Origin: a virus
Lineage: Duplodnaviria; Caudoviricetes
Direction: 5' to 3' (one strand)
Virus record (IMG/VR): IMGVR_UViG_2728369355_000004
DNA length: 64,000 bases
This document shows, one piece after another, positions 10,581 through 48,182 of the stretch; position 1 is the stretch's first letter, and the number at the start of each line of letters is the position of its first letter. Made by a program: the position numbers and the translations under genes. The notes beneath the pieces were generated by a model. That model made no database searches, was not told the origin of the DNA, and saw nothing but the letters and a program-made list of their open reading frames with translations.

Positions 10581-11294
10581 TTAGTTTGCAGATGCCTTTG
10601 ATTGCTCCTTATTATAAATTTTCAAAAGCCATTCACGACCTAACTGTGTAAATCTACGGTGATATATCACTTTTCCGTTATCAAGAACTTCTTGTTTGAT
10701 TTCAACATAGCCGCAATCCGCAAATCTGCTATACAACAACCATGTGTCATTCTGCCTGAATTGAATCTTTCGATTGCCTAAATCATGGTTAAGAGCAATT
10801 GCTGACTTAAATCCGAGTTCTTTGGCAATCTCTGTGGCAGTATAGGTTTTGTTAACATGCATTAGGATTGCATTTGTTCTTTCCGCCTGTACTCTGGCAG
10901 CACGTTCTTCCTTGAGCTTAGTCAACAGTTCAATTCCAAAGTCAGGATTATTGAGGATATTGTCAATCACATTATCCGTAGCATATATTCCATGCTTCCT
11001 GATCGACGGCAATATTTCATCAGCTACCTTGGCCTGAAATGCTTCGGCTACTTCGTTTCTTGCCTTCATTGCCAGTCGATAAAAGATGTTTTCAGGAATA
11101 AAAGTATCTTTCGACACTTCTGTCGAAAACTTCAAATCCGATATATACTGCCTCACTCTATCCCATTTGACATACTCTGCACTTTTGGATTTGTCTGTAA
11201 ATCCTAATCCGCGAGCCACATCCTCCAAATTCAATTGCGGCGTGCCGTTTCCATCAATAAATCCTCTTACTCCGTGAATTGTAAGTATATCCAT
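10581..11294 (-). CDS. Phage antirepressor (Bro-like N-terminus plus KilAC/ANT C-terminus)
   Basis: LEDVARGLGF, FIPENIFYRL, EILPSIRKHGIY, YTATEIAKELG..FTQLGR. Confidence 0.85.
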   Translation of the reverse strand: MDILTIHGVRGFIDGNGTPQLNLEDVARGLGFTDKSKSAEYVKWDRVRQYISDLKFSTEVSKDTFIPENIFYRLAMKARNEVAEAFQAKVADEILPSIRKHGIYATDNVIDNILNNPDFGIELLTKLKEERAARVQAERTNAILMHVNKTYTATEIAKELGFKSAIALNHDLGNRKIQFRQNDTWLLYSRFADCGYVEIKQEVLDNGKVIYHRRFTQLGREWLLKIYNKEQSKASAN

Positions 11295-11422
11295 TACGAT
11301 CTCACCTTTCTTTGTACGCAAAATAAGCCCCTGAGTTATCAGAGGCTTTCATACTTGTATCTTAAATTGATTTTGTTACTATAACGCTGCGGATTTTAAA
11401 GAGAAATATTGTTCAGTGAATA

Positions 11423-13025
11423 TAAAGTTGTAGACTGATATTGACGTCATTAAGTTAACGGGCAGAAATGTTCAATCATTTACGTTTTACATGTACCCGG
11501 ATAAATGAACAAGTTGTCAGACAGCAAGAACACAGGCGAAATGTACCCGAGTAGAACGCGGATACATACCTATTAATTTGGAAGTGTTAAAGTTTTTTCT
11601 AACATGCATAAATTATCCAACCATGTCGCATAACAATCTCATACATTATTTTATTACAAAGAAGGGGGTTAATCTTCAATGCATACAAGAAAAGAGATAA
11701 GATCGCTATCACCGGAGGAACTCCTTGCGTTTCGAAGGGCTATGATTGAATTGCAGCGGCGTGATGGAACGAATAGTTACATCGATCTTGCAGGATACCA
11801 TTGGATACCACGAGAATTTTGTCCGCATGGGGAATCTATTTTCCTTCCGTGGCATAGGGTCTATATCCGCTTATTTGAACAAGCACTACAATCAATCGAC
11901 CCTTCTGTTTCTTTGCCTTTTTGGGATTGGACCTCAAGCGAATCGTTAGCTCAAGGCTTGGCTCCTGCACATGGCGATGAAATGTTCGATGACGGCGGAG
12001 TACCCCGACTGAATCCTCTCTTCTCCGGTCCAATAGAGGATCGGAGTCGTCAGACTCGCCGAAATCCTCCGCAAGCTCTCAGACGTTTAAGGGAACACGC
12101 CAGCGCAGCAATTGATGCAATGAGTGATTCAAATGATTTTATGAGTTTTACTGTTGCAATCGAGGGGCCACATGGGGACATACACGGTTGGGTTGGTGGG
12201 CCCGGTGGAGATATGTCAACAATTCTACGTTCTGCATACGACCCAATATTCTGGTCTCACCATGCTAACGTTGATCGACAGTGGGCTATTTGGCAAAAGT
12301 GTAACCCACAGGGAAATCCTCCACCTGAGATAATGTCATTATCATTGGAATCCCGCGGTTTTCCGGGGTGGTCTGTGGCTGATACGCTTGATCTCTCGTC
12401 ACCACGACTTGATTATACGTATGAAGGACTAGATACAGTTACTTGTCCTATACGGACTTTACATGAATTATTTGGTAAACCTCGAATTAAAGTGGAAATT
12501 AAAAATATAGTTATTACCAGGGGTTCCTTTATTGTTGATATCTACCTCCGTAGGAAGAACTCTGCTCTGGAGGAGGGCGTTTTCAGTGGATCGTTTAGCA
12601 TTTTCGGGCTCCCAAGCAACGAAGGGGGACATTTTCCCGGCCATCATCATCACCATACGCCCGTAAACAGGCTTATTGATGTTACGGAAGCTTTTTACGG
12701 CATGGAACTTGGCGAGGATCAATTGCATTATGTTGATATACAACTTCAGGCAGTTAATATGGATGGTGAATCCGTAGATCCTGCTGCTCTCCCGATTGAA
12801 GGGGTAGAACTAACAATCCCCGATAGGTCATGATAAGGGTTTAAATCGTTGGTATTTGAATACTAGCGTGCCTTGAAAAGAGAACTTTGTATTAGTAAGT
12901 GTTATTGCTAAGATTTCTAGTGGGTAATCGACGATATAGTTCAATAGAACCTCGGCAGTCTAGGATTTTATTTTCTCGGCCTTGGCTGCCGTTGTTTCTA
13001 TTATTGAGTGCAGTCTAATACTATT
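11423..13025 (+). mobile_element. MITE-like cassette carrier A (tyrosinase passenger)
   Basis: Left end TAAAGTTGTAGACTGA; site ATTAAGTTAACGGGCAGA at 11449; right ~90-bp segment homologous to 46790-46877 and ending in CAGTCTA. Confidence 0.6.
11679..12833 (+). CDS. Tyrosinase (type-3 copper protein)
   Basis: CuA H..CPH..FLPWHR, PFWDW; CuB HGDIH..DPIFWSHHANVDR; His-rich C-terminal domain. Confidence 0.92.
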   Translation: MHTRKEIRSLSPEELLAFRRAMIELQRRDGTNSYIDLAGYHWIPREFCPHGESIFLPWHRVYIRLFEQALQSIDPSVSLPFWDWTSSESLAQGLAPAHGDEMFDDGGVPRLNPLFSGPIEDRSRQTRRNPPQALRRLREHASAAIDAMSDSNDFMSFTVAIEGPHGDIHGWVGGPGGDMSTILRSAYDPIFWSHHANVDRQWAIWQKCNPQGNPPPEIMSLSLESRGFPGWSVADTLDLSSPRLDYTYEGLDTVTCPIRTLHELFGKPRIKVEIKNIVITRGSFIVDIYLRRKNSALEEGVFSGSFSIFGLPSNEGGHFPGHHHHHTPVNRLIDVTEAFYGMELGEDQLHYVDIQLQAVNMDGESVDPAALPIEGVELTIPDRS

Positions 13026-13066
13026 TCACCTTGAAATTCACGATTTGCTAGAGTGCAACTTGACCG

Positions 13067-13492: not shown

Positions 13493-13597
13493 TGATTAGG
13501 TTAGAGGGTATAACCCTTGAATAAGGTCACCTTACTCCGGCCAAGAAGACAGGTGACAACTTTGTTGGGAGTCGCTTTGTTAAGCGGCTCTTTTTAA
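13493..13597 (+). ncRNA. Candidate ~100-nt sRNA
   Basis: Promoter upstream; hairpin GTCACCT..AGGTGAC; terminator GAGTCGC..GCGGCTC-TTTTT; no ORF. Confidence 0.55.
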
Positions 13598-14238
13598 TTT
13601 GCATGTTTATTTCTCGGGTGATCACCTAGATACTTATCATAGATAGTTCTAGAGACTGCAATGTCTAACTTGAACTTGTCCGACATTGTCATCAGGTTAA
13701 CAGCATCTTCTAAAACAGCTTGTCTTTCTACAAGCATCTCGGGTGTCATTTGGTCTTTCTTGATCATCTTGGGGTGACCATGCATAGAAGAAATTGCTTT
13801 GTTTGCAATGGTATTAGCTTTAATAAAGTCAACTCTTACTGGTTGTCTTAATCCACTGCAAAGTTTACCCATGGCTTCTTTTTGATGATCTTTATCTAAC
13901 ATACGAAAGATTTGGAAACCTTCAAGTCCAGTAGACTGGCGAAGCTGCTTGATTATGTCGAAAACCCAATCTTGGAAAGCCTCAGCTTCTTTACGGCGTG
14001 ATCTCATAATCATTCGGTAGACTGCTTTTTCAGAGATAATCGCAACTTCTTGCTTTCCCCCGAGGGTGTCGGTTAAAGCTACATCCTTTTGAGTATCAGG
14101 CAAGCGACCTACCGCATCACGATTGTTTCTTATGCCGAGTACCCTAGTGACATCCACGGCTACTGCCCACCAATCACCTAGTGTCTTCTCTACAAAACGA
14201 ATTTCGTGTCCCATCCAATTCTCAATACGAATATTCAT
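13594..14238 (-). CDS. BRO-N family antirepressor
   Basis: EIRFVE..WWAVAVDV..LG, ISEKAVYRMIMRSR..AEAFQDWV. Confidence 0.88.
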   Translation of the reverse strand: MNIRIENWMGHEIRFVEKTLGDWWAVAVDVTRVLGIRNNRDAVGRLPDTQKDVALTDTLGGKQEVAIISEKAVYRMIMRSRRKEAEAFQDWVFDIIKQLRQSTGLEGFQIFRMLDKDHQKEAMGKLCSGLRQPVRVDFIKANTIANKAISSMHGHPKMIKKDQMTPEMLVERQAVLEDAVNLMTMSDKFKLDIAVSRTIYDKYLGDHPRNKHAN

Positions 14239-44289: not shown

Positions 44290-45915
44290 GTGGCTAAATT
44301 GATAAACACATCTAATTACGTGAAAACCTATACCACTTTAAGTGACTTAACAGGCGGGGAAAAAAATAGTAAGGAAGAAATTATTAAAAAAATTAGTAAA
44401 GTTCCACTTGGCGGCGTATTTATAATACTGTCACAAATGAATTCTTATGGGGGAGAAAACCTTGAAATAAGAAAGATATTTCTCGATTATCTTAAAAGCA
44501 TAGGAAGCAAAGATCTATCTCAAGTTTTAGGTGATAGTTCATTATATTCAGAGCAAGGACTTTTAACATTATGGAAATGGTTTTTCGTTTATGGAAATTA
44601 CAACTCAATCAACGAAAGCGTAGATCCAATTATTGGAGTAAACCAGATCATTCATCTTTGTATTGCTGTTTCTGATTACCTGTGTGATGAGATATCGGAG
44701 GAGAAAGCAAATAATTATTTTTTCTCAAATTCTGTGTTTAACAATAAGTCAAATCTAGGTTCCGATTTAGCGAGGTCTTCTCTAATTTTTGGAGAAATAG
44801 CCCAAAATGAAAATAATTTTGTATCTAAGGACTTTATAGATATTAACAAGATGTTTTCTGATAAATATGGTTACTCAATACAGGATTATCTAGCTATAAT
44901 TTATGGTCTTATTGCTGGTTTTCTAAATAAAGGAACTAGCAATGCCGCTATAAGATCTGATTGGAATAAATCTATTAATTATTTTGATAAAACTCATAAT
45001 CCAGATTTAGGAAAGAAAATAATTGATGAAATTTCTACTTCATTTCTAGACGCAAAAATATGGGCTCAAACATCCATAAACAATCCATGGGATTATACTT
45101 TGTTTCGTCAGAAACCATTACTAAAATTAGAAAACGGAAATTTTTATCCTATAAATCTATCGCTGTTATTTGATAAAGTTTTAAGTGATTTATATTTTAA
45201 AATCAGAGAAACCTCCCCTAAAAACAGTACACAAATAATAAGTTTTTTCGGAAAATGTTTCGAAAAATACGTGGAGATAATAACCAAAGAAACACTTGGG
45301 AGCCGAAAGAACAATATTCCATATGAGTTTATTCCTGAATTTAGTTATGGAAATAAAAGATCTAATAAATCCCCTGATGCACTTATAAGAGTTAAAGACA
45401 CTTTGTTAGCAGTAGAAGCAAAGGTTTATCGTTTAAAGATGGACTCACTTTTTGGAGTTAAACCTGCTATTGAGTCGGATACAAAGAGGTTTGCTATAGA
45501 CCCTATAAATCAAATGCAAAACCGATTAAGCGAATTGAAGACACGATCTCATCAAATTATGAATGGTATTTCCAAAATATATCTAATATCACTTACATTC
45601 GGGTACTATCCTACGCTTAAACCTTTTGAAGAGATGATTGATCAGATGATTGATGCGTCTGATTTACCGATCAAGGGAATTATTCACATGGATATAGAAG
45701 AGTATGAATTCTTTTTAGAGTTAATTTCTAGAAAAGCCTCGTCACCTGCATCTCATTATCTTGAGAACAAAAAACAACTTGCTCCTTATACTTCTTTTAA
45801 AAATTTCTTATTTTCTAGCTCTTTGTATCCTAAAAGACCTCAATACATTAAAGATAAGATACTGGAACACAGTAATAATATGAGGGAGACATTGTTTCAA
45901 ACTGCACTGCGCTAA
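44290..45915 (+). CDS. AT-rich moron with C-terminal PD-(D/E)XK-like nuclease motif
   Basis: FGKCFEKYV..KSPDALI..LAVEAK; opposite strand to the late genes. Confidence 0.7.
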   Translation: MAKLINTSNYVKTYTTLSDLTGGEKNSKEEIIKKISKVPLGGVFIILSQMNSYGGENLEIRKIFLDYLKSIGSKDLSQVLGDSSLYSEQGLLTLWKWFFVYGNYNSINESVDPIIGVNQIIHLCIAVSDYLCDEISEEKANNYFFSNSVFNNKSNLGSDLARSSLIFGEIAQNENNFVSKDFIDINKMFSDKYGYSIQDYLAIIYGLIAGFLNKGTSNAAIRSDWNKSINYFDKTHNPDLGKKIIDEISTSFLDAKIWAQTSINNPWDYTLFRQKPLLKLENGNFYPINLSLLFDKVLSDLYFKIRETSPKNSTQIISFFGKCFEKYVEIITKETLGSRKNNIPYEFIPEFSYGNKRSNKSPDALIRVKDTLLAVEAKVYRLKMDSLFGVKPAIESDTKRFAIDPINQMQNRLSELKTRSHQIMNGISKIYLISLTFGYYPTLKPFEEMIDQMIDASDLPIKGIIHMDIEEYEFFLELISRKASSPASHYLENKKQLAPYTSFKNFLFSSSLYPKRPQYIKDKILEHSNNMRETLFQTALR

Positions 45916-46684: not shown

Positions 46685-46789
46685 GTTTATTGCCTCCTAA
46701 AATAGTTTTAATTTGTTCCTGAATAAAGTGTAAATCCTTTCTACTCCGTACCTACTACGGATTTGCTAGTTCCTACTATCAGCAGAAAA

Positions 46790-48140
46790 TAAAGTGGTAG
46801 ACTGAGCCTAGAAATTGAAAACAGCGACAACCAAGGACGAAAAAAAGTCCTAGACTGTCGCTGTTCCATTGAACTAACGTTTCCCGTTAGCGTAATCAGC
46901 GATAAATAAATAAGCTCAAATTTTTTTAATATACGCGGCGGATATATTTTTGTTCAAATCTTGTTTCTCTACTTATTGTGTAGAAACAGCCCTTTATGCT
47001 TATTGAAAAAATCAAAGTACACTTTTGGGTTTTCTAATTCCCACCATTGCTTTATGTCGACTGGATTAGCTTCTAAATCATATATTTTTGTAAACTCCAT
47101 CGCCAGTAAAAACGGTGAGTGCGTTGCAATGATAAATTGACATCCGCAATAGTGAGCCATTTCCTCTATCATTTTGACAAGTTCAAGCTGCATTTTAGGA
47201 GATAGACTGTTCTCCGGTTCATCCAAACAATATAATGTGTCATTTTTAAATTTGGAATTAAAATAACTCAGGGCTGTCTCCCCATTGCTGTTCAGTTTAA
47301 TTTCGGTGCCGGCGACTCTGCGAATAAACTCCCTGCGTGAAATTGATTTTTTTCTTGAGAGCACCTGTAACCTCAATGCTTCATAATCATCCATGCTATT
47401 CATTTTCACTGTATTGCCGAATTTCAGATTTCCCCATTCCGATCTTATATCTTCTGTGCTATCCACGATTTCATCGTTGTTTGTGCGGACTGTAAGCATA
47501 TAATCAAAAATATCGTCACTTGTGATTATCCTGCTTCCATTTGGAATTCGATGTTTAAATCCCTCGTCGTCAAGTCCAAGTTCAAATTTACAATGTTCAA
47601 CATATGAACTGAACAATTCACTTGAATTGAATGGTGCAATACGATTTAGTTCCAATTTATTCGCTATGAGATTTAGAAGTGTGCTTTTCCCCGAGCCGTT
47701 TCCTCCATATAAAATTGTGATTTTTGAAAAGCTCAATTCGGAAAACCGATTTTTTGAGAAAATGCCACATGGGTAAGTTTCGTCGACATATCCAAACCTA
47801 CCGCCATTGTATGCCATTCTTTGTTCTATCAATGAGGATTCTTCATCTATAGGCAATATGAATTTATCTAAATACATTTTCATTCCTCCGTAATTCATCT
47901 AACCTGCTCTTATGTTTTCTCTTCCGTTTCAATTTGAAGTTTTCAACTAGTAAACCTCCCTCAATAATGTGGGAGCTTCCTCTTTTAAAAGCATTGATTG
48001 CTCAATCCCCTTCCATTCATAGTCGATGTAGGTATTATAGCAGACGAAATCTACTTATCTTATCTTGGTTGTGCTAATCTGCCCGTTAGCTTAATGAAGC
48101 ACCCTCAAGACTATTACTTTATTTTCAGTCTAGAACTTTA
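46790..48140 (-). mobile_element. MITE-like cassette carrier B (ATPase passenger)
   Basis: 16-bp terminal inverted repeats TAAAGTGGTAGACTGA / TCAGTCTAGAACTTTA; internal sites at 46869-46896 and 48069-48095. Confidence 0.65.
46969..47877 (-). CDS. AAA/ABC-type ATPase
   Basis: GGNGSGKST, SNGE, LDEPENSLSP, IIATHSP. Confidence 0.88.
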   Translation of the reverse strand: MYLDKFILPIDEESSLIEQRMAYNGGRFGYVDETYPCGIFSKNRFSELSFSKITILYGGNGSGKSTLLNLIANKLELNRIAPFNSSELFSSYVEHCKFELGLDDEGFKHRIPNGSRIITSDDIFDYMLTVRTNNDEIVDSTEDIRSEWGNLKFGNTVKMNSMDDYEALRLQVLSRKKSISRREFIRRVAGTEIKLNSNGETALSYFNSKFKNDTLYCLDEPENSLSPKMQLELVKMIEEMAHYCGCQFIIATHSPFLLAMEFTKIYDLEANPVDIKQWWELENPKVYFDFFNKHKGLFLHNK

Positions 48141-48182
48141 GACACCTAAAGTTAAGACCGCAAAGGCTTAAGCCCTTACGGT

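Follow-up and report, generated by a model that had tools for sequence, protein, structure and literature searches.

Two unrelated genes in one non-coding frame

What brings two genes without any relationship, one for an ATPase and one for a tyrosinase, into the same non-coding surroundings within a single prophage? The question is posed by IMG/VR record IMGVR_UViG_2728369355_000004, a 64,000-nucleotide stretch of Caudoviricetes DNA (called the window below, always in its full length) that is a prophage, with integrase, small terminase subunit, tape measure and anti-repressor (Ant)-like genes identified. Pairwise alignments delimit two elements in the window, A at 11410-13036 on the plus strand and B at 46777-48144 on the minus strand, built as one non-coding frame around unrelated genes; no transposase is found within either. 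The frame common to A and B is beyond chance expectation. The 19-mer CATTAAGYTAACGGGCAGA has exactly two copies in the window, at 11448 (+) and 48096 (-), with 0.03 expected, and the 29-mer TAGTTCAATRGAACNNCGRCAGTCTAGGA likewise has exactly two, with 0.00 expected. The motif TAAAGTTNTAGACTGA stands at 11423 (+) and 48140 (-), the left ends of A and B, and a third, inverted copy at 46790 (+) is the opposite terminus of B, which means that B has terminal inverted repeats.

It is highly probable that A and B are transposase-less, non-autonomous Tn7-like cargo elements ("mini-Tn7"), moved in trans and inserting into prophages and plasmids. A preliminary description of this DNA had quoted motifs at these positions and recognized the common frame around unrelated genes, and exact counts and alignments bear it out on both. 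It had also called the frame a carrier resembling a miniature inverted-repeat transposable element (MITE). The non-autonomous carrier with inverted termini stands, while the ends are not those of an unknown MITE but of the Tn7 type, with arrays of predicted TnsB sites.

Tn7-type ends and target duplications

The frame is a Tn7-type end pair, in which TGT...ACA termini are accompanied by 20-22-bp repeats (GAAAATAAAGTnnTAGACTG; repeat unit consensus TGTyCnnnGAAAATAAAGTnnTAGACTGA), which adjoin one another at one end and are spaced at the opposite one. At the Tn7-R-like end, one to five repeats run head to tail from the TGT terminus; at the Tn7-L-like end there are up to three, inverted and 55-70 bp apart, the innermost being embedded in a terminator-like hairpin. 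Termini of the TGT...ACA form are found at most copies (B has TGTC and ...GATA, that is, TAT; A has TGTTC and a decayed opposite terminus). The repeats are predicted to be TnsB-type sites, the same as those at the ends of the tnsABCD(E) elements described below. When they are set against the Tn7R primer as printed in PMC1475584 (tgtgggcggacaataaagtcttaaactgaa), TGT and repeat lie at an equal offset, and 17 of the 19 specified repeat positions are identical.

Searching the whole host genome with a profile of the right end gives 15 copies (E<=2e-6), and with a profile of the left end 8 copies (E<=2e-8). The approximately 15 copies are 0.3-5 kb in length and occupy many sites rather than glmS. 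Every paired copy has a different cargo: a patatin; a LysR regulator with a cupin; an aldo/keto reductase with a DUF3829 protein; a MerR regulator with a metallo-beta-lactamase fold protein; a TetR regulator with dehydrogenases. Perfect 5-bp duplications flank the genome elements at 1558558-1561189 (TTTGT), 3596874-3599564 (GCGAT), 3724872-3730310 (CTTTT) and 4630004-4631837 (ACTAT). Over the non-redundant end pairs from all sources, the 5-bp target duplication is perfect in 23 of 42 and matches at four of five positions in 2 of 42, as compared with 0 of 42 in a control with shifted flanks.

The hairpin belongs to the frame as well. Its change between CGGCAG/CTGCCG in A and CGACAG/TTGTCG in B is compensatory, just as had been proposed from the letters of the window, and among the 17 pairs of the consensus hairpin, drawn from 11 copies in this genome, 8 show double changes. 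The hairpins match no known RNA family in Rfam. We rejected a reading of them as insertion sequence (IS) elements of the IS200/IS605 type, or as repetitive extragenic palindromes (REP) with their associated tyrosine transposases (RAYT): the genome has no Y1 transposase (PF01797, 0 matches), and empty elements keep a site that this mechanism would remove.

Mobility and distribution

The prophage site of B is empty, with contiguous flanks, in genomes G010, G020, G024 and G031. G010 has a 23-nt stretch instead of the element, and its empty site reads TGTTAGAAC, where B is flanked by TTAGG and GTAGG. The same ends surround cargo of other length at this site in G012, G026 (two prophage copies), G034 and G033, while G035 has B itself, 99% identical, at a locus unrelated to this one. 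One cargo element is found at two sites with different duplications, ACAGG and ATATC. A transposase-less mobile carrier delivering unrelated genes to prophages, as the preliminary description had it, is what the empty sites, the other cargo at the same site and the second locus of B indicate, and the other passengers that it anticipated for these ends are abundant.

For A, 150 bp that join phage intergenic DNA to the terminal repeat and the left site are found again in many genomes, and this genome has them in a further prophage too (383535-383677). Homology to the copies in other genomes ends exactly after GGGCAG (query 617-766), and the tyrosinase gene is found elsewhere only at 66% identity, in one genome. 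Approximately 95 bp of phage intergenic sequence outside the terminus of A travel with the terminal repeat and the left site, at window positions 11316-11409, at genome positions 383535-383622 and in several genomes of the genus; a similar stretch adjoins the far end of the element at genome position 3394992. Either a phage family has a hot spot for insertion here, or the flank belongs to a longer end.

Across 93 genomes representing the genus, the terminal motif is present in 38 (control 0). It also occurs, unannotated, on 11 plasmid records, 8 of them from Paenibacillus and the others from Thermobacillus, Cohnella and Priestia. This distribution bears on an explanation without any mobility, by which the shared frame would be a vertically inherited expression frame (promoter plus terminator) of phage "morons". 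A and B do lie in one prophage, and each closes with a terminator-like hairpin, as such a frame should. Yet genes on chromosomes and plasmids, at a distance from any phage, have the frame around them too; its termini are inverted and 5-bp duplications accompany it, and its site is empty in related prophages. The immobile frame is thus contradicted, and we regard it as extremely improbable.

Cognate autonomous elements

A scan of one genome per species for two adjacent repeats finds at least 120 loci, in Paenibacillus, Brevibacillus, Cohnella, Fontibacillus, Lysinibacillus and "Bacillus sp." Among the 120 loci listed, tblastn places a TnsA homologue just inside the packed repeats in 22. The genes tnsA-tnsB-tnsC-tnsD lie immediately downstream of glmS at L152, L198, L223 and L209, and their products are recognized by Pfam as TnsA (PF08722 and PF08721), TnsB (PF09299), TnsC (AAA_22/TniB) and TnsD (PF15978 and TniQ). 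Locus L242 is a complete element of 14.4 kb, with five packed repeats on one side and three spaced repeats on the other, and it also encodes a C5 methylase, a GHKL ATPase and a protein with a TnsE_C domain. Genomes with an autonomous element are rich in short copies too, G093 for example having 53 repeat matches.

On this anatomy, A and B would depend for movement on a cognate tnsABCD(E) element, which would supply the TnsA/TnsB/TnsC core in trans together with a target selector. Insertion gives a 5-bp target duplication, and prophages and plasmids are among the targets. TnsE-type transposition targets actively replicating mobile DNA, and such targeting could account for copies in prophages and on plasmids.

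This genome (G000) yields no tnsB, tnsC or tnsD when searched by tblastn with the four Tns proteins, and no match to the PF09299 and PF08722 profiles. Its copies are therefore non-autonomous and, with no cognate element present, are currently stranded in this host. The only tblastn match is to a decayed remnant of TnsA. It lies outside the window, downstream of glmS, in a decayed Tn7-like element (G000:C1:2065600-2069717) that has a different end repeat (TGTCTGGTGATAAAAAAGTGTGGAAC...) and in which no tnsB, tnsC or tnsD is found; the TnsA fragment is about 50% identical to the cognate TnsA. Matches to the rve domain (PF00665) were considered as a partner transposase for this genome and set aside, being only IS3-type open reading frames (ORFs) of at most 350 aa without the repeats. 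Since PF00665 fails to detect even the cognate TnsB at E<=0.001, the absence of tnsB rests on PF09299 and tblastn. Within the genus, TnsA is found in 28 of the 93 genomes and Mu-transpos_C in 18. Two further partner candidates, the tnsABC-tniQ element of the G068 type and a glmS-linked element, have other end repeats and were rejected.

Several points weigh against the assignment of A and B to a trans-mobilized Tn7-like family. No cognate tnsB is found in this genome or among the 93 genus representatives, and none of the TnsA- or TnsB-proximal stretches fetched from those 93 has these repeats; trans-mobilization is therefore read from the anatomy of the elements. The resemblance of the repeats to the TnsB sites of Tn7 is one of sequence. 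A duplication is missing from 17 of the 42 end pairs, some of which are probably mispaired or rearranged. A has no recognizable duplication and a decayed left-type end, and in B the duplication matches at just four of five positions and one terminus is TAT instead of TGT. The end of B is absent from 50,697 phage records, and delivery by phage is accordingly documented only in prophages.

Other repeats occur close by in related genomes. A second end-repeat type, GACAATAAAGTTGTGTAC, with as many as three copies, is found near insertion sites of the mini-Tn7 family at L061, L063 and L070 (G010), L095/L101 (G034) and L102 (G035). It is nearer still to the printed Tn7R repeat and is absent from this genome. 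In G010, an IS110-family IS (PF01548, 4e-25) is inserted within the TnsB-type repeat (...AAATAAAGTATTAGAC, IS, TATTAGACTG) at L059-L075, most clearly at L065 (G010:C12:1-2107). At least 12 repeats in G010 are hit in this way, mostly at contig ends, and it seems that this IS targets the transposon-end repeat.

Anatomy of the two window elements

Element B, read along the minus strand, is preceded by the left copy of the target duplication (TTAGG, 48145-48149). Its Tn7-R-like end (48106-48144) consists of the terminal TGTC and two adjacent TnsB-type repeats, TAAAGTTCTAGACTG and AAAATAAAGTAATAGTCTTG, that match the ends of tnsABCD(E) elements. The left dyad site, L2, follows at 48073-48098 (TTCATTAAGCTAAC GGGCAGA TTAGC), and a putative extended -10 box for the cargo gene, TGCTATAAT, lies at 48034-48042, between the left site and the ORF. 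The preliminary description had taken the cassettes to be promoterless, which this box, as read from the sequence, speaks against; TGCTAnAAT boxes resembling it sit past L2 in other copies. The cargo (46969-47898) is a 309-aa ATPase of the ABC/AAA_21 type (Pfam AAA_21, 2.4e-16; AAA_15, 3e-13). It has partial PADLOC matches to PtuA/AriA-type ATPases, a likeness to defence-system ATPases only in part. Beyond it come the right dyad site, R1 (46868-46896; ATTACGCTAACG GGAAA CGTTAGTTCAAT), aligned with its counterparts, and the terminator-like hairpin (46823-46862), which is supported by covariation and has an inverted TnsB-type repeat (CAGTCTAGGAC...) in its 5' arm and loop. The Tn7-L-like terminal repeat TCAGTCTACCACTTTATTTTCTGCTGATA (46777-46805) has the terminus ...ATA, mutated from ...ACA, and is followed by the right duplication copy (46772-46776), whose GTAGG matches TTAGG at four of five positions.

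Element A, on the plus strand, begins with a Tn7-R-like end that is a single terminal repeat (TGTTCAGTGAATATAAAGTTGTAGACTGA, 11410-11438), followed by its L2 site (GTCATTAAGTTAACGGGCAGAAATGTTCAAT, 11446-11476). The cargo is a 384-aa tyrosinase (11679-12833; Pfam PF00264, 3.5e-37). The alignment finds the right site R1 decayed at 12922-12945, only ...TAGTTCAAT being kept. The hairpin with its embedded inverted TnsB-type repeat (12953-12991), again with covariation, and a decayed Tn7-L-like terminal repeat (GCAGTCTAATACTATTTCACCTTGAAA, 13010-13036) complete the element. A is flanked by two paralogous Ant-like genes, both on the minus strand, at 10584-11321 (phrog_130, 2e-44) and 13597-14238 (phrog_9976, 1.5e-62). 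Near B, the interval that separates it from the small terminase gene holds an ORF of 541 aa (44290-45912, plus strand, opposite to B). PHROG and PADLOC give no match to this ORF, which may be one more moron, in this case lacking the Tn7-type frame.

Internal dyad sites and the exchange of cargo

L2 and R1 are together one 27-bp dyad, with 10-bp arms TTrArCTAAC and GTTAGyTyAA and a 7-bp spacer that is GGGCAGG in L2 and GGGAAAC in R1. They stand in direct orientation, either side of the cargo. The dyad form that the preliminary description ascribed to the internal sites (CTAAC-spacer-GTTAG) is clear in both sites of B, weak in the left site of A and decayed in the right one. Among the 120 loci listed there are 117 packed ends; behind 53 of them comes an L2-type site, and behind 18 a tnsA leader recognized by pattern. 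Autonomous elements have no dyad sites at either end or inside. Readings of L2 as a sigma-factor site, operator or promoter were tried and dropped, no consistent -35/-10 pattern being seen by eye across copies.

In a mini-Tn7, one or a few accessory genes, probably self-expressed, sit between the ends, and the cargo turns over at the boundaries given by the dyad sites while the ends and the insertion site stay. One account of this turnover makes the carrier a docking site, where cassettes are inserted, excised and exchanged by a tyrosine-type recombinase, as in integrons or pdif modules, and whatever has docked is spread by the Tn7-type ends. It is the integron- or pdif-like capture platform of the preliminary description. 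We hold capture of this kind to be plausible, and the docking-site account, taken whole, to be possible if somewhat doubtful. A 27-bp dyad with a 7-bp spacer has the geometry of a recombinase core site, and this dyad is missing from autonomous elements and frequent behind the packed ends of the loci listed. The site halves beside the carrier are better conserved than those on the cargo side. The empty element with one site that had been anticipated exists in at least one case, L205, a clean case of about 270-290 bp that has no cargo and one hybrid site; L045, L183 and L207 look similar by eye. Two-cassette arrays with n+1 (that is, three) sites are found at genome positions 3972520-3973662 and 4613362-4614400. 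The cassette of B, from site to site, is present at 98% identity in other surroundings in G043 and G054, where homology ends at the sites. There is precedent, too, in the dif-like site and XerC-like recombinase that diversify Tn6022 (PMC11014353). (Two short "empty" pairs, L076 of 139 bp and L077 of 252 bp, have neither dyad site nor duplication and are uninformative.)

Carrier-less genomes add to the picture. In G014, G016 and G015, which lack Tn7-type ends, small co-oriented genes are separated by a module of about 95 nt made up of R1, approximately 12 nt, a terminator hairpin and L2, as the docking-site account would have it. At L257 (G014:C20:19000-36000), L258 and L259, the genes so divided include SUKH/SMI1-KNR4 immunity-like, GNAT, chloramphenicol-phosphotransferase-like, DUF7674 and methyltransferase-like genes, and the whole resembles a cassette array.

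Against docking stands the lack of a recombinase in or beside any element. None of the 13 tyrosine recombinase genes in the genome is inside or directly beside a site cluster, the closest approach being that of a 176-aa fragment, which lies about 2.4 kb away from the site at 5,707,256. The spacers of L2 and R1 consistently differ, and one cassette array begins with an R1-type site, neither of which is predicted by simple insertion at one site. Little can be learned from BLAST breakpoints at the edges of the sites, given that these are conserved everywhere, and the cargo has a promoter-like box of its own. In G056 the R1-type sites are scattered rather than gathered in one array: all 32 are on the forward strand and none on the reverse, and 27 are spread over 835 kb (G056:C11:37513-872394). 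Their strand bias suggests a coupling to gene or replication direction.

The same sites may have no role in exchange at all. They would then belong to a genus-wide intergenic repeat of site, hairpin and site, serving termination, insulation or 3'-end stability or being simply a small spreading repeat, that happened to be present in the ancestral cargo-bearing mini-Tn7, and the cargo would be replaced by homologous recombination or by deletion and insertion. This intergenic repeat is a serious possibility, though it falls short of being probable. An R1-type 23-mer (at most 3 mismatches) is found in 80 of the 93 genus genomes, many without a Tn7-type end (the control is near zero), as compared with 38 of 93 for the Tn7-type ends themselves. 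Most often the site takes the form of a site-terminator-site module set among small accessory genes. The site comes right after stop codons and ahead of the terminator, co-oriented with the genes, and the fold of R1, an 8-bp stem and a purine-rich loop, lies beside the covarying hairpin. The conserved ends, at 100-200 bp, are long enough for homologous exchange, and replacement at one prophage site keeps the ends contiguous with their flanks. But homologous recombination shuffles existing cargoes and cannot load a new gene between fixed sites, and dozens of unrelated cargoes in several genera share the same two boundaries. The sequence of the sites is conserved beyond structure, changes in one arm being uncompensated in the other, which argues for recognition of the dyad by a protein; no Rfam family matches it. 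L2, moreover, lies upstream of the promoter box of the cargo, which makes a role at the level of the transcript unlikely.

As to the exchange step itself, we tentatively favour the proposal that an unlinked recombinase acts site-specifically on the dyad sites. The differing spacers of L2 and R1 would permit the exchange of a cassette yet disfavour its loss. Plain homologous recombination between the conserved ends is possible as well, if less readily credited, and the probability that is left falls to dyad sites that are purely transcriptional or intergenic-repeat modules. Of integron-like behaviour, the family shows the one-site empty platform, the n+1 arrays and varied cargo at one locus. 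The missing linked recombinase and the genus-wide occurrence of the sites speak against the recombinase sites of the preliminary description. A still wider proposal, and an unlikely one as we judge it, is that Paenibacillus and its relatives have an integron-analogous cassette system based on the 27-bp dyad site, which would bracket self-expressed accessory genes both in arrays and at scattered loci. The mini-Tn7 lineage would have captured one such site as a docking point, where an unlinked recombinase would load and swap cassettes, and the Tn7 machinery would shuttle them to prophages and plasmids.

Significance and comparison with known systems

A search of the literature found no description of this transposase-less mini-Tn7 family. 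What comes nearest is the dif-like site of Tn6022 and a remark in PMC11837452 that movement in trans might occur for decayed Tn7-like elements. The survey of Benler et al. (PMC8649781) is anchored on TnsB, and in the text of it seen here the words "non-autonomous", "nonautonomous" and "miniature" do not occur. Surveys of Tn7-like elements start from TnsB, so that elements without a transposase are missed. The lineage missed in this case outnumbers its autonomous parent and extends over Paenibacillus, Brevibacillus, Cohnella, Thermobacillus and Priestia/"Bacillus". It carries redox, regulator, lipase and ATPase genes in prophages and plasmids, an unannotated route for accessory genes that include phage "morons". 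If the bracketing sites do recombine, this would be a cassette-capture system in Gram-positive bacteria that rides on Tn7 ends.

The family resembles Tn7 in its TGT...ACA termini, its 5-bp duplication and its 20-22-bp repeats, which crowd together at the right end and stand apart at the left. It also has cognate full elements, located beside glmS, in which tnsA, B, C, D and E are present. The family differs from Tn7 in that the window elements and the approximately 15 genome copies, of 0.3-5 kb, have no transposition genes and are not at glmS. Compared with the autonomous Tn7-like elements, the mini-Tn7 copies add two internal dyad sites and a hairpin-embedded repeat.

In mobile insertion cassettes (MIC231), transposon ends surround passenger genes without a transposase, and movement is presumed to occur in trans. 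Both these and the Tn3-derived inverted-repeat miniature elements (TIMEs) are like mini-Tn7 in the carriage of passengers without a transposase and in their presumed movement in trans. The ends here, in contrast, are Tn7-type multi-repeat ends and not IS231 or Tn3 inverted repeats, and the cargo is bracketed by extra conserved sites.

Pdif modules have flanking 28-bp XerC-XerD sites in inverted orientation, whereas the sites flanking a cassette here are direct, as judged by their asymmetric spacer. Mini-Tn7 elements share with pdif modules and integrons the unrelated small accessory genes between conserved sites, the co-oriented arrays and a one-site platform riding on a transposon. Tn7 itself carries an integron, as noted by Benler et al. 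(PMC8649781). Unlike an integron, the present system has no IntI, its 27-bp dyads stand on both sides of the cargo in place of attC sites of 57-141 nt, and its cassettes appear to have their own promoters and terminators (the promoter of B being read from sequence). The closest precedent is Tn6022 (Correa et al. 2024, PMC11014353), a Tn7-like element with a recombinase core-type site, for which diversification by a dif-like site and a XerC-like recombinase was shown experimentally. There the recombinase gene lies beside the site, while in mini-Tn7 the sites are two, direct, known from sequence and without a linked recombinase.

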